Virus record (IMG/VR): IMGVR_UViG_3300023053_000001 | Span: 1 to 64,000 of that record | DNA length: 64,000 nt | Reading direction: 5' to 3' (one strand) | From: a virus | Taxonomy: Duplodnaviria; Caudoviricetes | Shown here: positions 3,459-52,392 of the stretch, one piece after another | How the letters are laid out: each line of letters begins with the position of its first letter | Position numbering within the stretch: position 1 is the first letter of the stretch | The notes under the pieces: generated by a model | Told to the model about the DNA's origin: nothing | Seen by the model: only the letters and a program-made list of their open reading frames with translations | Database searches by the model: none | Translations under genes and position numbers: made by a program

Positions 3459-4550
3459 TTAATTGTCACCGAACATGAAGATCGAGTCCGCTGCCGGCAC
3501 CCACCACTGCAGTTCGAACGTGTAAGGATCGACGCGGGGGTAGCCGTAGTAGTTCATCGAACTCAATTGGTCATAGCGGAGCAAGCGCATCACGCGCTCA
3601 CGCCGACCATCTACCATGTCCGGATTGAAGTGGGCCACGATCTGATTGAACTCGTAGAAGAGGATCGGATCTTGGTACTCTGCACCAACGCAGTGCAGCG
3701 ACGTTGCGATCTGCTCCTGATTGTCCTTGTGGTAGTAGGAGTCAGAGGAGAAGTTGAACGCGTTACCCAGAGCCGGGCTCAGGGGGAACATGATCGTCGC
3801 CGCCACCTTGGTGACGAAACGGCGCGAAGGGTCCAACAGGAAACGATAGACACGACTTTGATAGTCGATCTCCTGTTCGATGATGGCCTCCGGATAGGGG
3901 ACCATCACACCGGCCTTGACATTCAGACCGTACTGCACCCACGCCTGCAGCAGTGATGTTATAGGGTCGCCGGCGATATTTCGCCACGAGGCCGACAGAT
4001 CGAAGGTGCCGCGCATACGGCGCGGGCCGTCAATCATCGACCATTGCTCGCGCTGCACACCCGGTGTCGAATCGAAGTATTCAGCCACGGGATCTGGCCA
4101 ACCACTCAGGTTCAACAGGAAGTTGCTCAGCACCGGGATGAAGGCACAGCGATTGTCAAACAGCGCCGAGTCATAGCCGCTGGAATCATCCTCGCTACTG
4201 TGCTCCTTGGCAGTGTAATCGCCTCGTGCCCCCTTGGGGTCCAGCGCTGCGCGAATCATTCGCTGGTAGCTGAAACGATCCCTACTAACAAGCATCGTCA
4301 TCGTGCGGTCCTGCGACACGTTATCGTATGCAAGATTCAAGCGCGGGCGCGTGAAAAACGTCAGGCCGCCAACGTCAGAGTTCACCGGTACGGCGATACC
4401 GGAGCCTCGATGATTGAAGCCCATGAGCGTATTGGTGAGGGCCTGAGTCAAGGCACCATTACCAGTCGACCGGACGGCCAAGTCGATGTTGGTCTTGATC
4501 ATGCGCTCGTCTGGCGTCAACGCCATGAGCTGTTTAAATTTCGTATCCAT
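3459..4550 (-). CDS. phiKZ-family tail tube/tube-initiator-like virion protein, 363 aa
   Basis: GFNHRG...GLTFFTRPRLNL motif recalled from phiKZ-like tail proteins; co-oriented with the baseplate-like gene. Confidence 0.6.
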   Translation of the reverse strand: MDTKFKQLMALTPDERMIKTNIDLAVRSTGNGALTQALTNTLMGFNHRGSGIAVPVNSDVGGLTFFTRPRLNLAYDNVSQDRTMTMLVSRDRFSYQRMIRAALDPKGARGDYTAKEHSSEDDSSGYDSALFDNRCAFIPVLSNFLLNLSGWPDPVAEYFDSTPGVQREQWSMIDGPRRMRGTFDLSASWRNIAGDPITSLLQAWVQYGLNVKAGVMVPYPEAIIEQEIDYQSRVYRFLLDPSRRFVTKVAATIMFPLSPALGNAFNFSSDSYYHKDNQEQIATSLHCVGAEYQDPILFYEFNQIVAHFNPDMVDGRRERVMRLLRYDQLSSMNYYGYPRVDPYTFELQWWVPAADSIFMFGDN

Positions 4551-4573
4551 TTTTCTACCTTGAGGATTTACCC

Positions 4574-5815
4574 ATGGGACCGCTCAACACCTCGACGGGT
4601 TTCATCCCGTCGCTGATGTCGCTCATGTCGTCGTCTCTGCTGAAGAACCTGTCGTCGTCGAACAAGAAGATGGTCGGTGATCGTCTTCAGGAAAACAACG
4701 GCCGCCTCTTCCCCGTCGACAATCTGGCCAAGCTCACCCAGAGCACGCGCGTTGAACCGATCGCCATGGTCGACCAGCGCCTGGCTGGTCTGGAAGCGAC
4801 CACACAGAGCCTGCTGGCCCTGTCGGCGCTGTTCACGGCATATTACCTGCAGGCTGTCGCGCTGCTGGTGAATGTCGGTCGCGTCAACACGATGCGTCTG
4901 CTCGATTCGATCAACCCGAATCGTGACGTCACCTCCGCGGCCGGTACTTACCTGGCCAACCAGATCATGTCTTCCGAGTCCTACCGGTACGGCCTGCCGT
5001 ACGCGGACACTGCTGTGCCGTCCTTCGAGGACGCCACGGACCTGAACGCTCGCCTGAACAAGCTGGAAGAGCGCGCCGGTCGGCAGGAGAAGGACCCGTC
5101 CAAGGGCACCGGTATGAAGATCGACGCCGGCATGCAGAAGGACATCATCAATGAAACGGCCAGCCTGTCGGTGGGCCGTCTGGTGAACGTCACCATCCGC
5201 AGCGCCACCAAGGACGGCAAGGACGAAGAAGCGACGATTCCGATCATGATTCGCCTGATGGTGAACCTGATGGCTCCGTCCATTCTGACTCATATCCTTG
5301 GGGACAACAGCAGCAACACGTCGGCCAAGGAAATGTTCCACACCTGGCGTGCCAAGGGCGGCGGCTTTGCCAACTTCTGGCGTGACATCATCTTCGCGCA
5401 GGATCTGATCGACGAACACCGCAAGACCCTGATGAAGGACGGTAGTGGCGTTTACGAAGACATCCTGTCGCGCAACCGCGGCAACAAGTACACCAGCGCG
5501 CTGACCCAGGTGCCTTCGCTGAACAACGCCGCCAACCTGGTGGTGATCTCGGCGCAGACCGCGCGTGATCTGGAAACGAAGATCGGCGGCAAGCTGGACG
5601 ATTACGCTGTTCGTCAGCGGGTGTTCAAGAGCAGCTACCTGCTGTTCCTGGTCGTGGTCGATACCGAGTGGGATCGCGTGACCTTCTACACCCGCGACAT
5701 CAAGACCCCGAACCGGCTGTCGGTCAAGGAACTGAAGGTCTCCAACAAGGGCACTGGCCCGGACGTGGAGCAGATCCTGAAGGCGTACCAGCTGGGCAAC
5801 GCCCCGACCATCTAA
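4574..5815 (+). CDS. conserved phiKZ-like virion (head) protein, 413 aa
   Basis: GAGGA RBS, high GC3, candidate processing sites SSESY and PSFED, position at start of head-gene array. Confidence 0.6.
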   Translation: MGPLNTSTGFIPSLMSLMSSSLLKNLSSSNKKMVGDRLQENNGRLFPVDNLAKLTQSTRVEPIAMVDQRLAGLEATTQSLLALSALFTAYYLQAVALLVNVGRVNTMRLLDSINPNRDVTSAAGTYLANQIMSSESYRYGLPYADTAVPSFEDATDLNARLNKLEERAGRQEKDPSKGTGMKIDAGMQKDIINETASLSVGRLVNVTIRSATKDGKDEEATIPIMIRLMVNLMAPSILTHILGDNSSNTSAKEMFHTWRAKGGGFANFWRDIIFAQDLIDEHRKTLMKDGSGVYEDILSRNRGNKYTSALTQVPSLNNAANLVVISAQTARDLETKIGGKLDDYAVRQRVFKSSYLLFLVVVDTEWDRVTFYTRDIKTPNRLSVKELKVSNKGTGPDVEQILKAYQLGNAPTI

Positions 5816-19294: not shown

Positions 19295-20594
19295 TCCGAT
19301 TGGTTCGCTCCTGCAGTACACCGAGGGTAAACCTTGGGCTGTGGAGTATTACCAGCGGGTCATGGGTAGCTCTGAAGAAGTCATGGCGCAGGCCACCAAC
19401 GTGGCAGCGCCTTTCCAGCAATACCGCCGCATCCGCAACATGATCGTGCGCGTCACCGAGGCACTGAGTGATTCGCAGGATACCACCACCAAGCAGATGA
19501 AGACTGAGGGCGCAGGTATCACCTTCCCCTCCTTCATCCCCAACGTGGGCGACATGTTCTTGGCCCCGCTGCTCGATGGTCGCGAGGGTGTGTTCGTCAT
19601 CACTGAAAGTGAGAAGAAGACCCATCTGAAGGAAGCGCAGTACCAAGTGCGCTGGGAGATGAAGGGCTTCTCCGACACCTTCGGCACCACGCTGGCCGAT
19701 CTGGCAGAGAAGGTCATCGAGTCGTTCACCTACGTGGCCGATTATCTGACCTTTGGCCGCAATCCGTTGCTGCTGGATCAGAAGTACGCCGAGCTGATGG
19801 ACATCCGCACGTTGCGCGATGAGTTGGTGGATTACTTCTTCACCGAAGCGTTCAGCAACGAACATCAGACGCTGATGGTGCCCAATCAGGAGTTCACCAC
19901 CTACGATCCGTTCTTGACGAAGTTCGTCTTGGATCTGATCGGCTCGGACGAACATCCCTACGTGGGCCGTATCCGTAAACCGTCGGTGGATCAGCAGCTG
20001 GTCGGTCGTCATCCCACGATCTGGGATTCGATTCGCGCCGTCAACCATCGCACCATTCGCAACAACGTCCACCGGGTTCGTTTGCTCGACTCGGGCTGGT
20101 TCCGTAGTCAACCGCTGTATGCGGGCATCTACTGGACGGGCATCAAGCGCGTGGTGTTCCCGTTCCATGCACGCACCGACGTCGATGCGCCGTACTACCC
20201 CATCTGCGATCTGCCGCCTCTGGTCGGTCAGGTACTGATGGCTGCCGGGAAGAGCCGCTGGAACACGCTGGAACGTCTGGCGGGTACGCCTGCTGACGGC
20301 CTCACGCTCCCGCAGCTGCAGGAGTCACCGGAACCGCCGGTGGGGACGGATCTGCCCGACTACGTGCGCGTGACCGTTGATGACTTCTACGTCTTCAGCG
20401 AGAGCTTCTACACCCAACTCCGCCCAGCGTCCAAGCTCGAATCGATTCTGCTGCAGTACATCAAGCAGCAGCCGATCGACACCGCTGTCCTGTCCAAGCT
20501 TGCCAGTGCGGCGCCCCAGTGGCCCAACGTGGAACGGTTCTATTACCTGCCCGTGTTGCTGCTGCTGATCACTGCCGCCATCCGTGGGAACTGA
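19191..20594 (+). CDS. phiKZ-family virion structural protein, 467 aa
   Basis: GAGGA RBS; LLxYxEGxPWxVxYY and FxPNxGDMF motifs recalled from phiKZ-like tail proteins; overlaps the upstream gene by 104 nt. Confidence 0.65.
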   Translation: MPIAPTPQAPKPQKPTAPTVVSTQYRGATVDTRFDPIGSLLQYTEGKPWAVEYYQRVMGSSEEVMAQATNVAAPFQQYRRIRNMIVRVTEALSDSQDTTTKQMKTEGAGITFPSFIPNVGDMFLAPLLDGREGVFVITESEKKTHLKEAQYQVRWEMKGFSDTFGTTLADLAEKVIESFTYVADYLTFGRNPLLLDQKYAELMDIRTLRDELVDYFFTEAFSNEHQTLMVPNQEFTTYDPFLTKFVLDLIGSDEHPYVGRIRKPSVDQQLVGRHPTIWDSIRAVNHRTIRNNVHRVRLLDSGWFRSQPLYAGIYWTGIKRVVFPFHARTDVDAPYYPICDLPPLVGQVLMAAGKSRWNTLERLAGTPADGLTLPQLQESPEPPVGTDLPDYVRVTVDDFYVFSESFYTQLRPASKLESILLQYIKQQPIDTAVLSKLASAAPQWPNVERFYYLPVLLLLITAAIRGN

Positions 20595-38163: not shown

Positions 38164-38610
38164 ATGTCGAGTATCAATGAATCAATCGTAGTACGTTTCA
38201 ACTCCCTCATCATCACCGCCGAAGAAGCAGATGAGGTAGCAGCACGACTGCAGCAGATGTTGCGCGTCACCGGTTCCGGTGGCATCGCATTCGCTGAAGC
38301 TAGCGGTATTTCGCTCCAGGGCGCGTGGGAAATCTCGTACAGTGGTACGGTCCGCTACCCGCAGCTCGGGAACTCGGGCAACTTCCACACCATCGAATTG
38401 GAAGCACGCGCCGGTACCGTGGAGGACCACACTGCGGATGTCATCCGCACCATCGTGGCCATGCGTGATGAATGCCTGCGTAACGCCTACCGCGATGCCC
38501 TGCGCAGCGTCTCCAATGACATCGCTCGCCTGAACGTGGACGAAGTCAACGCCGGCGACATGATGGACCATCTGAAGGCTATCCTCGAAGCGTTCCCCAA
38601 CACCAACTGA
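38164..38610 (+). CDS. hypothetical protein, 148 aa
   Basis: AAGGAG RBS; terminator with UACG tetraloop downstream. Confidence 0.75.
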   Translation: MSSINESIVVRFNSLIITAEEADEVAARLQQMLRVTGSGGIAFAEASGISLQGAWEISYSGTVRYPQLGNSGNFHTIELEARAGTVEDHTADVIRTIVAMRDECLRNAYRDALRSVSNDIARLNVDEVNAGDMMDHLKAILEAFPNTN

Positions 38611-38854
38611 CGGTAAACTGTTAGTCGTGAAATGGAGACTCCCTACGGGGAGTCTTCCCACTCTTGCCCTTACTAGACCTCTATCACCTCAATGCTTACT
38701 CTGAATAACGTCAAAGCTGGTTCCTTCATGCACAACTTCCTCCTGAGCCGTGGCGCTAAAGCCCCGCAGCCGGTGGAGTCATTCGCCATTCCTTCTTCTG
38801 AGTTCAAGCCCTCGACGGGGCCTGAATTCGAATTCGACGATTTGTGAGACTGCC

Positions 38855-39484: not shown

Positions 39485-39485
39485 C

Positions 39486-39848
39486 ATGCTCTACTATTAC
39501 CTGTGGTGTGCATTGTACGTGTGTTGCGCAGCCTACGCAGCCTTCGGACTGATCGTGGTATATGAAGATGTGGTCATGGATCGCATGGCCTTCTACAAGC
39601 GGTCGCGGTGGCGTGACTACTACCGACATCCGTTCCGGTCCATGTTCAAGAACCTGACGATACCGGCTGTTCTCATCATCGTGGCGACCTTCAGTCTGGC
39701 CATGGGTGAAACCTACCGGGCCGATCCGATGCTGACATGGTACGAGCGAATCGGAGGTTCACTGATCTGGGCTTGGTTCTGGGCCCGTCTGTTGCAGAGT
39801 GCCTACATGTACTTCGGTACGGCACATGCGCGTCGCCATGCGACATAG
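39486..39848 (+). CDS. 3-TM membrane protein
   Basis: Three hydrophobic helices. Confidence 0.65.
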   Translation: MLYYYLWCALYVCCAAYAAFGLIVVYEDVVMDRMAFYKRSRWRDYYRHPFRSMFKNLTIPAVLIIVATFSLAMGETYRADPMLTWYERIGGSLIWAWFWARLLQSAYMYFGTAHARRHAT

Positions 39849-39908
39849 CGACATAACTCCCTCCACCCCGCAAAGGGTGGAGGGAGAGGCTATGCCTTTT
39901 TTCTTGGC

Positions 39909-42560: not shown

Positions 42561-42635
42561 TCCTGAGTTGGGGTTAGTGACTCCCTACGGGCCTATAAGG
42601 AGTAGGGTTCATAGGATTGTCTTAACGGCATATAT

Positions 42636-42669
42636 GCCATTGGATAGCCCATAGTGGCTATCCAATGGC
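42636..42669. repeat. perfect 14-bp inverted repeat
   Basis: GCCATTGGATAGCC-CATAGT-GGCTATCCAATGGC. Confidence 0.85.
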
Positions 42670-42845
42670 TAATACGTTCATAGCGGAGGTATAGGTGGGA
42701 TAGGTTCAATTGTTAATTCCCCTTAGGTATATATACTTGACTATCGTCACACCCTCCCTTCCTAAAGGTTTCCCTCCCAGGAAGCCTCATTCCAATTAGA
42801 CTGGGTTATAAAAGAACATGCTCTGTCAATATCTTATTTGACAGA

Positions 42846-42874
42846 TCAGTACAGGGTACAAAGCCCTGTACTGA
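42846..42874. repeat. perfect 11-bp inverted repeat
   Basis: TCAGTACAGGG-TACAAAG-CCCTGTACTGA, about 20 nt upstream of promoter copy 2. Confidence 0.85.
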
Positions 42875-42895
42875 AAACGTCGATTGGACCATATT

Positions 42896-42913
42896 TCAGA
42901 TCTATAACACTCC
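42896..42913 (+). promoter_or_regulatory. candidate early promoter motif (copy 2)
   Basis: Identical to 16030-16047. Confidence 0.7.
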
Positions 42914-42966
42914 GGTGATAAGACAACTACGTCTTCCATAAACCCCTTCACATGGAGTGTTCAATC

Positions 42967-43269
42967 ATGGCAACCGCTACCTTCGCAAGCAAGCTCAAGG
43001 ATCTGATCGTGGCTCTCGGCTTCAGCGCAATGGCGCTGGCCGCAGTGGCCCTGCTGGTGGATGCAACCATCCCGCCGGCAAAGCAGGAACTGGTTTGCGG
43101 TAGGACTGGCATCAGCGTCATGGTTGGCGCCGATGGCATCACCTGCCAGATCCGCAGCACCAGCCGTATCTACGGCCAGGTTGGTCACACCCACTACTCC
43201 TACAACGGCCGGGTGGCCGATGGCATGGAGCAGGTGGACATCACCACCATGCCGCGCGTCAATCCGTAA
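42967..43269 (+). CDS. secreted or membrane-anchored small protein
   Basis: GGAG RBS; N-terminal hydrophobic helix; two Cys. Confidence 0.7.
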   Translation: MATATFASKLKDLIVALGFSAMALAAVALLVDATIPPAKQELVCGRTGISVMVGADGITCQIRSTSRIYGQVGHTHYSYNGRVADGMEQVDITTMPRVNP

Positions 43270-44619: not shown

Positions 44620-45360
44620 GTGACCGTTACCGCACTGCTCCTCCTGCTGAAGGAGGCTGGTAAGTGGCTGCTCAATCCGAAGAACTGGCTGTACGTTCTC
44701 GGTGTTGTGGCGCTGCTGTTTCTTCTGTACAGCGTAAGTGGTTTCATCTACGGTCGCGGTGTTGCGCACCAGGCCAAGGTGATGCAGCCCACCATCGATG
44801 CAGCGTTGAAGGCTGCCAAAGACTCTGCTGAGAGTGAAGCCGCCTATCGCGGCGAGTACGATAACTGGATGGCCAATAGCAAGAAGGCCAAAGACCAGTT
44901 CATCGCCGAACAGGGTAAGCTGATCGATGATCTTCAGCGTGACCTGAAAACCGAACGTGAGCGCAAGCTCCAAGCCGAGGTACGCATCCGTGAAGTCGTC
45001 AAGTACATCCCTGCTGAAGTTGATGGCAGTGTTGTTCTGCCTCTGGGCGCTGTCCGCCTGTACGCAGATGCCCTGCAAGGAAAAGCCGCCAACGATGCAG
45101 CCCTCGGTCCCGTTTCCTTCGGTCCCGAAGGAAATGTTGGACAGCCCTCCGGCGTTACTCTGTCCCAATTCGTCAGCGCTGCATCCGGGAACGCCGCTCA
45201 GTGCGTGCAAGACCGAGCAGTCCTGAGGTCTTGGCAGATCTGGTATCCCAAGGTGAAAGCCGCCTACGATGAAGCCATCAAGGTTCAGCGTGAAACGGCA
45301 CCCACCGGTAAAGCACCCCTCGGTACGCTCGCCCCAGCCTCGGGATTGGACGAACTGTAA
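44620..45360 (+). CDS. inner-membrane spanin (Rz-like)
   Basis: N-terminal TM, long coiled coil, C-terminal N..QCVQ...L..WQ.WY; contains an embedded lipoprotein gene. Confidence 0.75.
   Translation: MTVTALLLLLKEAGKWLLNPKNWLYVLGVVALLFLLYSVSGFIYGRGVAHQAKVMQPTIDAALKAAKDSAESEAAYRGEYDNWMANSKKAKDQFIAEQGKLIDDLQRDLKTERERKLQAEVRIREVVKYIPAEVDGSVVLPLGAVRLYADALQGKAANDAALGPVSFGPEGNVGQPSGVTLSQFVSAASGNAAQCVQDRAVLRSWQIWYPKVKAAYDEAIKVQRETAPTGKAPLGTLAPASGLDEL
44990..45226 (+). CDS. embedded outer-membrane spanin (Rz1-like lipoprotein)
   Basis: GAGG RBS, GTG start in +1 frame; MKSSSTSLLKLMAVLFCLWALSAC lipobox; Pro-rich mature part. Confidence 0.75.
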   Translation: MKSSSTSLLKLMAVLFCLWALSACTQMPCKEKPPTMQPSVPFPSVPKEMLDSPPALLCPNSSALHPGTPLSACKTEQS

Positions 45361-45572
45361 ATTCGGCCCCAATCACATCGTTGGGCGAGCTGACCTATAA
45401 CGGGTAACCGGTCAGTCAAAGCGGTGCCATTACTGAGGCGCAACCAAGCCGCTACGTCGTCCAGAACAATCAGGTAAATGCGGTCTCGCCAAGGAGAAGC
45501 GCCTGCCGGATGATTGTTCAAGCTATTGATCTGAATGGAGCCGGGGGTCGAGCGCCCCCGGCTCCTTATGCC
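45361..45572 (+). ncRNA. possible structured RNA or 3' UTR element
   Basis: Stems 45368-72/45381-85, 45389-95/45410-16, 45420-24/45449-53, 45464-72/45511-19; then GGAGCCGGGG/CCCCGGCTCC terminator; no credible ORF. Confidence 0.35.
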
Positions 45573-45609
45573 GCCCATGCTATGATCCACCCCTTCTGAG
45601 ACTGCCCAC

Positions 45610-46236
45610 ATGCGTGACAAACTCCTCCTCGATGAAGCCCAGCTGCGCGAACGCCTGCTGATCCTGGCCGGTGAGCACGGCCCAGAGGTATTGGAAGCCA
45701 GTGCCGATGATCTCGAGCAACTGTGCCTGAGTCACGCTACCTACCACACGGTGGGCGCTACCCCGGAGCAGATCCTCAAGTCCGCTCAGCAGGTAATGCA
45801 TTACGGTCTACTGGCCAGTCTGGCGCGCCGCGCTGACGACCTGAACTTGGACCGCATGTCCCTGCGTTCGGAAACGCTCTTCAACGAAGCTGAAGAAGTA
45901 CCGCTGGACCTGCTGCGTCGCAATGCGCGCGTACCCCTGTTCAAGATCGGCCAGCGCGTGTACATGCCGGCCTCCGGATCAGACACCGTCGAGGAAGACG
46001 AAGATCCGGTCGTGGGGTGCATGGAAGTGATCGTAGCCGGCTACGAGCTGAGCTACGACTATGTCCAGTACCAGATCGGCCAGCTCCGCCCCGATGGGAT
46101 CATGGTGGATCTTATCGGTGAATGGGTGGATGAGTCTGAGCTGTACGCTGACATGGACTCGGTCACCGAAGCCATCGTGGGTACTCGCCCAGCCCAGCCG
46201 AAGATGCGTCCCCGTCTGTCTGTGGTCAAAGACTAA
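45610..46236 (+). CDS. hypothetical protein with SH3-like segment and ClpX-binding-like tail
   Basis: FKIGQRVY motif; ends RPRLSVVKD. Confidence 0.7.
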   Translation: MRDKLLLDEAQLRERLLILAGEHGPEVLEASADDLEQLCLSHATYHTVGATPEQILKSAQQVMHYGLLASLARRADDLNLDRMSLRSETLFNEAEEVPLDLLRRNARVPLFKIGQRVYMPASGSDTVEEDEDPVVGCMEVIVAGYELSYDYVQYQIGQLRPDGIMVDLIGEWVDESELYADMDSVTEAIVGTRPAQPKMRPRLSVVKD

Positions 46237-46280
46237 ACGAACATAGAGCCCCTCCCGCATCACGCGGGAGGGGCTCATGC

Positions 46281-46496
46281 TTATTCGCGATGGAAGACAG
46301 AGATGTCCAAACGTTCCAGGAACGCATCGACACGTTCGTCGTCAGCTGCCACTCGAGCAATCAGTGCGCCGTTGCTCTTGGCATGAATGTGATAAGGACG
46401 TTCGTCCTCGGGTTTGTGTACGATCGTGACCAAATCGCGCCGTGTAACCACGGACGCCTTTTCGTCCTTCCCGCCCATTTCTTTTGACTTGGCCAT
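46281..46496 (-). CDS. small protein, paralog of upstream neighbour
   Basis: AGGAG RBS; PEDERPYHIHAKSNGALI...DAFL. Confidence 0.65.
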   Translation of the reverse strand: MAKSKEMGGKDEKASVVTRRDLVTIVHKPEDERPYHIHAKSNGALIARVAADDERVDAFLERLDISVFHRE

Positions 46497-46564
46497 GACC
46501 TCAACTCCTGACAAATGGTCTTACGTGAGAGCTTCTTGTTTTAGACGCCAGCTCTCAATACCAT

Positions 46565-46807
46565 TTACCATCCGCGAACACGTCGACGGGTGGGTGCCAC
46601 CTGCAAACTCTCCAGCGAGTACCCGCTCAGGAATTCGTCCAAGGCTTCTTTCGAAACGAAAGAGCCCAGACAAACACCAGTACGACGCTTGAAAAGACGG
46701 AAGGGCAAATCGCTACCAGGAACTTCTTCCCACGTGGTGAGACGACGTTTGGCACCCATCTCCGGCAGCCCCCTGCCTGTCTCAGAGACCGTGACAACAG
46801 CATTCAT
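46565..46807 (-). CDS. small protein
   Basis: GGAG RBS; PGSDLPFRLFKRRTGVCL...DEFL. Confidence 0.65.
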   Translation of the reverse strand: MNAVVTVSETGRGLPEMGAKRRLTTWEEVPGSDLPFRLFKRRTGVCLGSFVSKEALDEFLSGYSLESLQVAPTRRRVRGW

Positions 46808-47212
46808 TTGAACAACTCCAGATTAATAGAAGGCCTTCATTGGCCTGTGGCGGAGCATCGCGTCAGTGCGAGACTATGACCCCCTCAAAGCATGAGAGTA
46901 AAAAATAACTGCCGTGGTCGATAGTGTAGGAGCAGAGCTTGCCAGCGTGCTCCCAACTGGAACATAGCCGAAAAGAAAGCCATCTAACTCTCCACGAAAG
47001 TAGAGGTTGCTGACCAAGATCCTCGCCGACCTCGAGCCGGCGAAACGCTTGGCGGAACGCTTGAACCGTTGAAGGAGTGGTTAGGGGAACCGACATCCGT
47101 CGACCAGGGCGCCTTTCCAGTTTCGAGGCCGGTCCATCTGCACATTAAAGGGGAAGTGCGACCCTGGAGGTGTGTAGGTGGACAATCTCGATTTCATCGC
47201 AAAAGACATTGA

Positions 47213-47297
47213 TGGCCAGATGCTCGGGTGGCATTGAGCAGTGCACTTACTTCATTCGTGCATTTTTCGGGGGTTCGAGTCCCTCTTGGCCAATCCA
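47213..47297 (+). tRNA. deviant tRNA-like cloverleaf (pseudo-tRNA) embedded in the large RNA
   Basis: Acceptor TGGCCAG/TTGGCCA, D stem GCTC/GAGC, anticodon stem GTGCAC/GTGCAT with 11-nt loop TTACTTCATTC, T arm GGGGG-TTCGAGT-CCCTC; A8/G14 replace U8/A14; CCA is one nt off register. Confidence 0.65.
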
Positions 47298-47659
47298 GTG
47301 TACTTTGCGATGGAATCCATCTAGCCGCCTACTGACAGAATAAGCGGTCGTCCAGGTAGTGCCTTGCCAGCGATGCAACGCTGGCCCGTACTGAACTGTC
47401 TGCTGTGGTGCCTTTCGAACCGATCTGGGGAGATAGGTTGCACATCACAGAAGTTGTCGCTCAACCGAATGTCATCCATGCGCCGTCCACTTAGTAACGC
47501 CTGAAGCCGACCTACGGGTCTGGTCGATGCCGTGAAGCCTGGCGGGGTGTGAGGTGACGGTAGTTAAGAGTCTTCAGCCTTCAGGGTTTACCGTTAGCCG
47601 CGGCCGCGAGCTTACTGTGAATTCTGCTGGGTGCCGACTTTGTCTCACCAACTTCTGAC

Positions 47660-47693
47660 TCCTAGGCCCTCTCCGGGGGCCTAGGACTTTTTT
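47660..47693 (+). terminator. intrinsic terminator closing the large RNA
   Basis: TCCTAGGCCC/GGGCCTAGGA stem followed by CTTTTTT. Confidence 0.85.
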
Positions 47694-47709
47694 GCCGCTC
47701 AACCGATTT

Positions 47710-47727
47710 TGAGACATATAACACCCG
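47710..47727 (+). promoter_or_regulatory. candidate early promoter motif (copy 3)
   Basis: TGAGACATATAACACCCG, 13/18 match to copies 1 and 2; also reads TTGAGA-17 nt-TATAGG. Confidence 0.55.
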
Positions 47728-47791
47728 AGGGTATAGGTGAAAACTTATATGCCGTCTGTATGGGTTGTACTTCAACCCAACTGGATACTCC

Positions 47792-49300
47792 ATGTCGCAC
47801 TATGAGCTGAACCAGGACGTCAACCTGACCGCCGGCAACACCGTCCCGGAGAACACCACTGCCGCTGTGCGCTACGCGCTGGCCAAGCAGCTGGGCATCA
47901 TCAAGCAGGAACTCTGGGAACTGCGCAACCTCGGTATCGCCGTCAACAACTACAAGGAAATCCGCGACGGCGTGGGTGACGCCATCGTGGTGTGGGACGG
48001 CTTCGTCCACTACGCCAGCAACTACCTGACCCATCCGGGCCAGGTCGAACACGAAGACCAGATGCCGACCGTACTGGCCGTGACCCGCGCCATGGACCGC
48101 CTGGACGAACTGCATGCCGAAGCCACCGACATGTTCGAGCACGACGAGTTCGCCGACGCTGTCGTCAACGGCTGCCAGTCCTCGATCGAGCGTCTGCAGA
48201 AGCTGGTCGTCGCGGCCTACGAGAACATCGCCACGATCGCCACGTACTACGCGGTGCCGATCATGCCCGACCAGTACGCGATCTACGATTCGAACATGTC
48301 CAAGTTCGACACCGACTCGCTGACCGCTGCCGAAGGCATCGCCGAATACCAGAAGCAGGGCGTTCCGGTCAAGATCGTGGACACCCAGCACAAGGGCGTC
48401 AGCTACTACATCATCCGCGTGGCCGAAACCGTCGTGGTCAACGGCAAGGAATACGTGGAAGGCAAGTTCCTGAAGTCGGTCGATTTCAAGAAGCCGGACT
48501 TCGTCGACACCCCGGAAACCGTGCGCATGGGCGAGTACCTGGCCGAGCTGGGCAACCCGCAGGAAGCCCAGGCAGCCCGCGATGCGATGGCCACGCCGGC
48601 CGAAGCCGTCGGTGGTGTCACCGAAGGTCTGGAAACCCAGATCGCCGACGTCAAGGCCACCGGCCTGTCCCAGGACGAACGTGAGCCGGGTCGTGACTAC
48701 TACGAGCTGAAGGTGCATCGCGCCAACGGCGAGACGGTCAGCATGAAGGTCAACCTGCCGGCCGACGTCTATGACGGCGACAAGGCCTTGATGAACTTCA
48801 ACCTGGTCTTCAACGAAATCGAGCAGGCTCGCCTGACGCAGTTCATGGACCCGGACAAGCGCGCTGCGATCACCAGCCTGCTGGGCTGGGCCAGCCTGAT
48901 GGCCACGATCAGGAACCTGAACGAGCGCCGCGTGATCAGCGTCGAACTGGACCCGGCCGATACCGACCCGGGTGCCACGCTGGCCTTCCTGGCGGAGAAC
49001 CTGAACAACACCGTCGAAGCCCCGGAACAGTCGGTCGACGATGATGTCCAGATCCACCTGCCCGATCCGCTGGAAGAAGTGCAGAAGATCCTCGCCGTGG
49101 AACGTTCCATCTGCGCAGCGATCGAACCGCTGCTCCCGGCCGATGAGTACGGTACGCACCTGCGTTACCTGCTCTCGCTCGATCCGCCGGACCTGGGTCA
49201 GTACGGCAGGCCCGAAGCGGTGCTGGTCCGCCAGAACCTGATCGACGCCTTCGCTGCCGCCGTGCGTGAAGGCCGCTACAAGCCGGCTTCGGCCGAGTAA
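47792..49300 (+). CDS. acidic hypothetical protein (~502 aa), probably highly expressed
   Basis: Extreme GC3 bias; behind promoter copy 3; terminator downstream. Confidence 0.8.
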   Translation: MSHYELNQDVNLTAGNTVPENTTAAVRYALAKQLGIIKQELWELRNLGIAVNNYKEIRDGVGDAIVVWDGFVHYASNYLTHPGQVEHEDQMPTVLAVTRAMDRLDELHAEATDMFEHDEFADAVVNGCQSSIERLQKLVVAAYENIATIATYYAVPIMPDQYAIYDSNMSKFDTDSLTAAEGIAEYQKQGVPVKIVDTQHKGVSYYIIRVAETVVVNGKEYVEGKFLKSVDFKKPDFVDTPETVRMGEYLAELGNPQEAQAARDAMATPAEAVGGVTEGLETQIADVKATGLSQDEREPGRDYYELKVHRANGETVSMKVNLPADVYDGDKALMNFNLVFNEIEQARLTQFMDPDKRAAITSLLGWASLMATIRNLNERRVISVELDPADTDPGATLAFLAENLNNTVEAPEQSVDDDVQIHLPDPLEEVQKILAVERSICAAIEPLLPADEYGTHLRYLLSLDPPDLGQYGRPEAVLVRQNLIDAFAAAVREGRYKPASAE

Positions 49301-51633: not shown

Positions 51634-52221
51634 ATGACCACCAAGATTGCCAAGACCCCCGCCAAGCAGGGTTCGAAAGTTGCCAAGAAGATCGCCGCCA
51701 AGACCGCTGCGAAGAAGGCTGCCGCCAAGAAGACCGTGCTGAAGGCACCGGCCGCTGCCCAGCGCAAGAAGCTCAACACCGCCCTCGACGCCCAGGGCCC
51801 GAGTACCCTGACCGTGGACGTGTACAAGGGCAAGGCCAAGCCGGCCACCGGCGGCATCATCAACAAGCTCAGCGCCGGCCTGCAGAAGCTCGGTGAAGAG
51901 AACGCTACCGCCAAGACCGGCCGTGGCCTGACCGCTCCGGTTATCCACATCGACGCGGCGGCGTTCCTCCCGGCCAAGCCGAAGGCGCTGGTCTCCAAGC
52001 ACGTCCAGATCGACTTCAGCAAGGGCAAGCAGCTGGTTGGTCGTACGCTCGCCCAGGCCACCCGTGGTCTGAAGGCCTACGTGGTTGCCACCCACGCCGA
52101 GTCCAAGACCGACTACGTGTTCTCGTTCAACGCCCTGTCGACCAAGCCGGCCGTCGTCAAGGCGACGCTGCGCAAGGCGCTGGCCCAGCGCGGCTTCACC
52201 GTCAAGACCATCGCGGCCTGA
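51634..52221 (+). CDS. histone H1-like Lys/Ala-rich DNA-binding protein
   Basis: MTTKIAKTPAKQGSKVAKKIAAKTAAKKAAAKK N-terminus; basic throughout; extreme GC3 begins at this ATG. Confidence 0.7.
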   Translation: MTTKIAKTPAKQGSKVAKKIAAKTAAKKAAAKKTVLKAPAAAQRKKLNTALDAQGPSTLTVDVYKGKAKPATGGIINKLSAGLQKLGEENATAKTGRGLTAPVIHIDAAAFLPAKPKALVSKHVQIDFSKGKQLVGRTLAQATRGLKAYVVATHAESKTDYVFSFNALSTKPAVVKATLRKALAQRGFTVKTIAA

Positions 52222-52392
52222 CGTCCAACGTTCCAGGGGGAGCTTGTCGGGGGACTTCGGTCCCCCGGCAGGCTTTTATGCCGCGTCATCGTAAACATTT
52301 ACAAACCTACATTATCCAATGGCTAGTACCCACCAGCCCTCTCCGCGATTTTAGGCGGGCTAGTCCATTTATGTTCAGATGAGAAACCAATC

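Follow-up and report, generated by a model that had tools for sequence, protein, structure and literature searches.

A cloverleaf of apparent tRNA origin at a hairpin tip in a structured RNA of uncultured phiKZ-like jumbo phages

We analysed the first 64,000 nucleotides of the IMG/VR virus record IMGVR_UViG_3300023053_000001 (hereafter the window), which is part of a 190-kb record with a G+C content of 58% and an estimated completeness of about 71%. An earlier note, made from the letters of the window only, had described positions 47190-47317 as a tRNA mimic that is locked inside an extended acceptor helix. After comparison with related phages we consider it likely that the cloverleaf is a dispensable passenger derived from a tRNA, which is carried by a single lineage at the tip of a hairpin in a structured phage RNA of about 0.8 kb (hereafter the host RNA).

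The cloverleaf and the hairpin that carries it

The cloverleaf at 47213-47292, with its canonical T-loop and 5-nt variable loop, was borne out base for base. The same is true for two other observations of the earlier note, the replacement of U8 and A14 by A and G (A47220 and G47226) and the 11-nt anticodon loop at 47247-47257. The parts of the cloverleaf and the helices around it are as follows.

47213..47292, plus strand: tRNA-derived cloverleaf of 80 nt, as read from the sequence, the minimum-energy fold and relaxed ARAGORN
47213-47219 / 47286-47292, plus strand: acceptor stem, 7 bp with one G-U
47220, 47226 and 47235, plus strand: A, G and T at tRNA positions 8, 14 and 21, read from the sequence
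47222-47225 (GCTC) / 47236-47239 (GAGC), plus strand: D stem, 4 bp, with GG within the D-loop
47241-47246 / 47258-47263, plus strand: anticodon stem, 6 bp
47247-47257, plus strand: anticodon loop TTACTTCATTC, 11 nt
47245..47252, plus strand: exact tandem repeat ACTT-ACTT (ACTTACTT) in the anticodon arm, read from the sequence
47264-47268, plus strand: variable loop TTTTC, 5 nt, the terminal C being able to pair with G15
47269-47273 / 47281-47285, plus strand: T arm, 5 bp, with the T-loop TTCGAGT at 47274-47280
47293-47297, plus strand: A47293, T47294 and CCA (47295-47297) 3' of the acceptor stem, read from the sequence
47206-47211 / 47296-47301, plus strand: flanking helix of 6 bp
47190-47203 / 47304-47317, plus strand: flanking helix of 14 bp with one G-U

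Energy minimisation of the 128 nt from 47190 to 47317 gave the structure listed above (-57 kcal/mol, z = -6.1); 200 shuffled sequences all folded less well. The minus strand of the element was weaker (-43.4 kcal/mol, z = -4.7), and a duplex as strong as that of the flanks was found at 11 of 20,000 random positions in the genome. All four stems of the cloverleaf are completely paired (22 pairs, three of them G-U). Moreover, the cloverleaf has tRNA-specific traits: the T-loop, G18G19, the G15-C48 (Levitt) pair, the G53-C61 pair and the lengths of the arms. As judged from its sequence, the cloverleaf is derived from a tRNA. When a kissing partner for the 11-nt loop was sought by eye elsewhere in the RNA, only 5-nt complements were found, which corresponds to the chance level.

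The loop had been read as a double anticodon, with two overlapping CT-NNN frames. The two readings, TAC and TCA, are present, but they coincide with the ACTT tandem repeat, and the double anticodon would most simply be explained by a slippage duplication. Without one of the ACTT copies the loop becomes the 7-nt TTCATTC, with CAT at the anticodon position. The proposed check with ARAGORN gave a divided result: with default settings the cloverleaf was not called, and with the intron option and a relaxed threshold it was reported as tRNA-Met(CAT) with a 4-nt 'intron'. The segment that is dropped to obtain the CAT anticodon has the same length as one ACTT copy.

Independent gene calling placed no genes in the 984 nt around the element (46808-47791). 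Relatives of this region were found with neighbouring proteins as queries: a 502-aa protein led to the 272.8-kb JGI contig L030, a 208-aa protein to L067, and an 80-aa protein to L069, L072, L073, L075, L076 and L077. A homologous RNA is present at the same position, adjoining the same small genes, in L030, L069, L077, L067, L075, L076 and L072. All relatives have a gene-free stretch at this position except L070, the most distant one, which has a gene there. In L030, L067 and L069, which cover the whole gap, its length is 0.9-1.0 kb, while the short contigs L072, L073 and L075-L077 contain only a part. The identities over the gap were as follows.

The window and L073: 100%
L076: 86% to the window and 91% to L067, visibly mosaic
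L067, the same as L075: 85% to the window
L030, L069 and L077: about 52-58% to the window, 94-95% among themselves
L072: about 52% to the window, shorter RNA

Five distinct versions of the host RNA exist besides that of the window; the hairpin is present in all five and the cloverleaf in none. In L067 and L075 the extended helix is a plain hairpin of 49 nt, with stems of 14 bp and 6 bp and a 5-nt loop. A covariance model of the window element (R1) matched L067 with 40 bits, with its 82-nt core reduced to 3 nt. The hairpin of L076 (54 nt) has the same 5' arm as the window through TGGCCAG and then continues directly with TCCAGTGT (...ACATTGA-TGGCCAG-TCCAGTGT...); exactly 74 nt that the window has between these two parts (47220..47293, plus strand) are absent. 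L030, L069 and L077 have a longer homologous hairpin that is capped by UACG. When these were read manually in a column alignment with the window, most pairs were kept; one had both partners exchanged (G-C to C-G), and a few had a change in one partner only. ARAGORN found no tRNA in any of the relatives' loci, and R1 had no match in L030.

Because the relatives have the hairpin without the cloverleaf, the long helix is part of the host RNA and not of a tRNA mimic. An extended acceptor helix is seen only because the acceptor stem of the insert stacks on a hairpin that already existed. The 6-bp and 14-bp pairing described in the earlier note is real, but the joining of helix and cloverleaf into one locked mimic does not hold, as the independent hairpin occurs without the cloverleaf in L067, L075, L076, L030, L069 and L077. 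Similarly, the off-register CCA is there (A-T-CCA), but it falls on the host stem strand CAGTGT, which is also found in L067 and L076, both without the tRNA. The outgroups lack the cloverleaf, which places its gain inside the clade of the window, L076 and L067. Since it is absent in all other members, including relatives that are 85-86% identical, it is dispensable for the function of the host-RNA family. Homologs without a cloverleaf were the outcome that the earlier note had named as speaking against its proposal, and the cloverleaf was absent from every relative found. A sequencing error, the other doubt it had raised, is ruled out, as is an assembly error, by the sequence of the gap, which is 100% identical in contigs of no fewer than six independent assemblies, of DNA as well as RNA libraries.

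L076, a contig of NCBI GCA_013565735.1, is mosaic over the region that corresponds to 46904-47330 of the window: blocks that include the hairpin arms are window-like, and the sequence elsewhere is L067-like. This pattern suggests recombination among related phages that occur together.

A DNA similarity search of 50,697 phage records gave no match. Pattern scans of IMG/VR (T arm with acceptor, odd loop with T-loop, D-loop with T-loop, and a host-RNA block) returned none or one chance match. Scans of JGI metagenomes for host-RNA blocks returned 0 and then 36 chance matches, none of which was homologous by blastn or nhmmer. In IMG/VR no relatives were found with a 562-aa and the 208-aa protein of the phage, and one distant, non-syntenic relative was found with the 502-aa protein.

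The host RNA and its surroundings

At about 0.8 kb, the host RNA forms a conserved and structured unit on the plus strand with a terminator of its own. It has the following parts.

46876..46909, plus strand: conserved block ATGACCCCCTCA..GAGTAAAAAATAAC, candidate promoter and transcription start, nearly invariant in the window, L067, L076, L030, L069, L077 and L072
46904..47184, plus strand: conserved 5' domain, from covariation and the covariance model R2
47190..47212, plus strand: 5' arm of the host hairpin, made of the 14-bp strand 47190-47203, an AG bulge, the 6-bp strand 47206-47211 and A47212
47294..47317, plus strand: 3' arm of the host hairpin, in which the apparent CCA (47295-47297) overlaps the stem strand CAGTGT (47296-47301), followed by the 14-bp strand 47304-47317
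47318..47659, plus strand: 3' domain, more variable and absent from the shorter L072 version
47660..47693, plus strand: intrinsic terminator, a 12-bp stem and then a T run, kept in all relatives with changes that preserve pairing
47748..47755, plus strand: TATGCCGT motif before the 502-aa gene, probable start of a separate transcription unit

The plus strand of 46870-47695 folded with -329 kcal/mol (z = -4.3), compared to z = -1.05 for the minus strand. RNAalifold on an alignment of the 5' domain (seven sequences) gave 47 pairs, 14 of which have changes on both sides. In this alignment 94.2% of the cells are paired, versus 33-44% in controls with slid partners; the observed value was not reached in any of 500 shuffles. 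In addition, the L030 version folds far better than shuffled sequences (z = -5.85). Covariation in the 5' domain, the strong fold in L030 and the conserved terminator together indicate that the host RNA is a real structured family.

The covariance model of the 5' domain (R2) had one match in the genome, the host-RNA locus itself (281 bits), and no match in the phages RTH11, LucasX, Xoo-sp14 and FLC9 or in a 314-kb IMG/VR phage. Neither the window version of the host RNA nor those of the relatives matched an Rfam family, and a gathering scan of the whole window gave no match. In E-value scans of 46900-47600 and 45300-47900 only weak matches were seen (tRNA with 15.6 bits and mascRNA with 14.5 bits, the rest being chance). 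The host RNA represents a previously unclassified family of uncultured phiKZ-like soil jumbo phages, with several sequence versions and none in the cultured relatives.

We infer a promoter role for the block at 46876-46909; a sigma-70 consensus scan of 46200-47850 found no site. Contigs from RNA libraries span the region (46559-48013 in X9 and 45799-48202 in X13) at about five times the depth of neighbouring contigs, this depth being one figure per assembled contig that includes the flanking genes and from which the share of the host RNA is not separable. It is a weak hint of host-RNA expression. In two more RNA runs the region lies inside contigs of 9.6 kb and 44.9 kb, which may be DNA carry-over.

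The 190-kb record contains 18 copies of the TATGCCGT motif, most of which lie 2-4 nt behind a G+C-rich terminator hairpin and precede genes. The copies in the window are at 476(-), 4842(-), 23137(-), 42632(-), 47748(+) and 49339(+). Since most of them come straight after terminator hairpins, TATGCCGT probably serves the phage as a promoter or start-site element. The stretch 47688-47737 had weak matches in RTH11, FLC9 and the 314-kb IMG/VR phage, which suggests that the part upstream of TATGCCGT is conserved too. The A-rich TAAAAAAT occurs five times in this genome of 58% G+C, where about 1.4 copies are expected (an estimate from base composition). One copy is at 46899 of the window, within the conserved block upstream of the host RNA, and the others are at 2920, 78426, 172230(-) and 188666 in genome numbering. 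TAAAAAAT is possibly a second promoter class.

The 562-aa protein, which is conserved, places the phage with the phiKZ-like jumbo phages. Its closest cultured phages are the Xanthomonas phages RTH11, LucasX and Xoo-sp14, with an amino-acid identity of only 32-40%. Soil metagenomes contain the window sequence, and so do many metatranscriptome libraries from soil (17 runs). The left neighbours of the 984-nt gap are two small genes on the minus strand, coding for 71 aa and 80 aa, of which the 80-aa gene borders the gap. On the right follows the plus-strand gene of the 502-aa protein (47792-49300), in which a PHROG match indicates a MazG-like region. No Pfam match was found for the proteins neighbouring the gap.

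The MazG-like pyrophosphatase region covers about 250 aa at the N-terminus of the 502-aa protein and has about 140 distant relatives of roughly 250 aa in length. The C-terminal half was seen only in this clade, and the version in L030 and L069 is 425 aa long. Further to the left, a perfect G+C-rich hairpin of 13-14 bp at 46246-46276, terminator-like on both strands, separates the convergent genes for the 208-aa (+) and 71-aa (-) proteins. Other gene-free gaps of 0.4-1.9 kb were flagged by a crude open-reading-frame filter that uses the G+C content of third codon positions, at 19730-20518, 38286-38749, 39485-39908, 42561-43060 and 51749-52374 of the window and at 95942-97882 and 85536-86552 in genome numbering. 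Some of these may hold further non-coding RNAs, or genes that the filter overlooked.

Origin and possible uses of the insert

Among the related phages, R1 had its best match in the tRNA-Met(CAT) of RTH11 (33 bits). In RTH11, LucasX, Xoo-sp14, FLC9 and the 314-kb IMG/VR phage it found ordinary tRNAs only. An apparent full-length match in FLC9 turned out to be a tRNA-Gln with poorly paired flanks. Six phage tRNAs in IMG/VR (Arg-CCT, Asn-GTT and Arg-TCT) have the same acceptor, TGGCCAG/CTGGCCA, and all six have the canonical T8-A9 and 7-nt loops. When 185,579 species genomes were searched for the exact 21-mer of T arm and acceptor and for the pattern of acceptor and T-loop, both were absent. An origin as an attP copy of a host tRNA's 3' half is excluded within the reach of this search, since no matching cellular tRNA was found in the same genomes. 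Because the acceptor matches are in phages and no cellular match was found, a phage origin of the cloverleaf appears more likely than a host origin.

The palindrome TGGCCA forms a direct repeat that flanks the insert (47213 and 47287), and its two copies make up most of the acceptor stem. Two routes could have led to the difference between the window and L076. In one, the heptamer TGGCCAG was present in the loop beforehand, and a tRNA starting with it recombined into this loop by microhomology. In the other, the ancestor of the three lineages had the tRNA, L076 was left with the 5' acceptor strand after a deletion of 74 nt, and the loop of L067 was shortened further. This second route is a simple stepwise series, but it requires one extra event. 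Gain only and gain followed by loss both lead to the same identity of the element.

In the scenario that we propose, a phage-type tRNA gene would have been captured at the hairpin tip within the clade of the window, L076 and L067, possibly through palindromic TGGCCA(G) microhomology, and the insert would be co-transcribed from the promoter of the host RNA. Later, a tandem duplication of 4 nt in the anticodon loop and the loss of the U8-A14-A21 tertiary set may have followed. More speculatively, RNase P and 3' trimming could still excise the insert, which is conceivable because the acceptor stem, the T arm, G18G19 and G15-C48 are intact. Excision would leave the host RNA in two pieces that are joined through the 20-bp helix. 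The halves would stay joined because the insert is located at the hairpin tip, and this would explain why an insertion is tolerated there.

Several points weigh against a passenger tRNA. No donor tRNA was found in the 185,579 species genomes or in the 190 kb of the phage. The TGGCCAG of L076 fits a deletion remnant and an insertion site equally well. Full pairing of all 22 stem pairs somewhat exceeds what neutral decay would lead one to expect, and the intact stems may reflect a fold under selection or a recent insertion. The carrier exists in a single sequence version, and covariation and polymorphism are silent on constraint either way. Finally, the evidence for transcription consists of assembled RNA-library contigs only, and both transcription and processing are inferred.

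A cloverleaf that was retained after insertion as a useful handle for the host RNA is an alternative that we regard as unlikely, though worth weighing. Candidate roles are an RNase P/Z processing site at which the large RNA would be split or matured, a landing pad for elbow-binding proteins, and a decoy for host defence nucleases that target tRNAs. The stems and elbow contacts (T-loop, G18G19 and G15-C48) are intact although sister lineages do without the element, and its position exactly at the hairpin tip means that excision would spare the fold of the host RNA. Covalently linked tRNAs are found in GOLLD RNAs as well, and for eukaryotes, long non-coding RNAs from which tRNA-like units are excised have been described (PMC12941219, PMC6152437). 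On the other hand, the function of the family is independent of an element that all other members lack, even those with 85-86% identity. There is one carrier sequence, no candidate partner protein, and no RNA ends are seen in the assembled contigs. A processing handle, a structural elbow or a nuclease decoy, as suggested in the earlier note, could at most be secondary functions of an element that was inserted. We are somewhat more doubtful still that RNase P and 3' processing excise the mimic and yield a two-piece, base-paired 0.8-kb RNA together with a non-decoding tRNA-like RNA that engages tRNA-binding factors or defence nucleases.

The next alternative, a working tRNA that is released from the host RNA and either reads CAU or acts as a frameshift or opal suppressor with an expanded loop, is very improbable. 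As in canonical tRNAs, there are four arms, acceptor, D and T stems of 7, 4 and 5 bp, a TTCRANY-type T-loop and GG in the D-loop, and the acceptor stem and T arm are accompanied by a discriminator-like A. ARAGORN models tRNA-Met(CAT) when 4 nt are skipped, and the phage is poor in tRNAs. The cloverleaf departs from a canonical tRNA in its anticodon loop, which is not of 7 nt with U33 and purine 37; it has 11 nt (13 nt with the C-G pair open), and the three possible readings (TAC, TCA and CAT) all lack a purine at position 37. Moreover, U8, A14 and A21 are all substituted, by A, G and T, and the score of 15.6 bits with the Rfam tRNA model (RF00005) is about half of the gathering score of 29. 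The genes of the window are normal under code 11 and give no sign of recoding. To our knowledge an 11-nt anticodon loop is without precedent in decoding, and we know of no bacterial machinery that removes a 4-nt insert. Because of the 11-nt loop, the lack of purine 37, the lost U8-A14-A21 set and the absence of a known way to remove 4 nt in bacteria, the cloverleaf most likely no longer decodes. The sub-threshold scores agree with this, and the statement of the earlier note that it is not a decoding tRNA is supported as the most probable one.

The only canonical tRNA in the 190 kb is Leu-CAA (4531-4615 in genome numbering, outside the window). In contrast to the cloverleaf, it has ACCA encoded in register and no flanking helix. 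ARAGORN found no tmRNA (a tRNA-like domain with a tag reading frame) in the window or the genome. The cultured relatives RTH11 and FLC9 have large tRNA clusters, compared to the one canonical tRNA in this record.

The element resembles a YrlA-type Y RNA in overall shape, with a tRNA-like domain on a long helix that would bind Ro60/Rsr, yet such an identity has hardly any probability in our view. A search of the genome with the Rfam YrlA model gave no match up to E = 10, and a TROVE/Rsr gene was not found in the 190 kb of this record, which is about 71% complete. Furthermore, a YrlA-type stem would join the two ends of an RNA of about 100 nt, whereas the stem described here lies as a hairpin inside an RNA of 0.8 kb and is free of a cloverleaf in the relatives. 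A chance fold or an assembly artefact, for which one could cite the silence of standard tRNA detectors, is scarcely credible given the z-score of -6.1, the tRNA-specific loops and the identical sequence in the independent DNA and RNA assemblies.

Meaning and comparison with known systems

By itself, a non-canonical and probably non-decoding tRNA relic is of modest interest, and its surroundings are more useful. The cloverleaf flags an unclassified RNA family of about 0.8 kb in uncultured phiKZ-like jumbo phages that is supported by covariation. It also offers a rare pair of a filled and an empty site, from which one can see how a tRNA becomes nested in a large phage RNA. So far such nesting was known in GOLLD, with its meaning unexplained there. 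The joint occurrence of large phage RNAs and tRNAs would be explained if hairpin tips tolerate insertions because the halves remain base-paired after tRNA processing. For annotation, the case calls for caution, as an 'extended acceptor helix' round a tRNA-like fold can be structure of a host RNA.

Phage tRNA genes and pseudogenes share with the element the cloverleaf, the T-loop, the GG in the D-loop, the Levitt pair and the acceptor TGGCCAG/CTGGCCA. It differs from them in the 11-nt loop, in A8/G14/T21, in lacking its own promoter, terminator and tRNA cluster, and in being nested in another RNA gene. mascRNA is a tRNA-like processing unit at the 3' end of MALAT1. The likeness to the MALAT1/NEAT1 system is one of analogy only and lies in a tRNA-shaped unit within a long non-coding RNA that could be excised by RNase P/Z. 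That system is eukaryotic, whereas the unit described here is internal, at a hairpin tip, and its processing is hypothetical. The score with the Rfam mascRNA model (14.5 bits, gathering score 42.5) was not significant.

YrlA Y RNAs, which carry a tRNA-like domain on a long stem, are present in phages (PMC4201824). The element shares with YrlA (RF02553) a tRNA-like domain with T and D arms on a long helix. It differs from it not only in the lack of a model match and of an rsr gene but also in its helix, which lies within a larger RNA and is older than the tRNA-like part.

ROOL (RF03087) is likewise a large structured phage RNA and is linked to tRNA islands, whereas the host RNA has no tRNA island nearby. 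The ROOL model had no match in the E-value and gathering scans of the window; the E-value scan is more informative than a genome search, also negative, in which the control matched nowhere.

GOLLD is a phage RNA of about 800 nt, some members of which have a tRNA in the linker between two domains (bioRxiv 10.1101/2024.12.08.627333). The GOLLD model, which represents the conserved 3' region, had no match in the scans of the window or in the search of the genome. The resemblance to GOLLD (RF02032) is one of layout only: an ornate phage non-coding RNA of about 800 nt, with 5' and 3' domains and a nested tRNA in some members only. The conserved part is the 3' region in GOLLD and the 5' domain in the host RNA, and what is nested in the host RNA, at the tip of a hairpin, is a tRNA of non-canonical form that probably does not decode. 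Judged by this analogy of layout, GOLLD is the closest counterpart of the host RNA.

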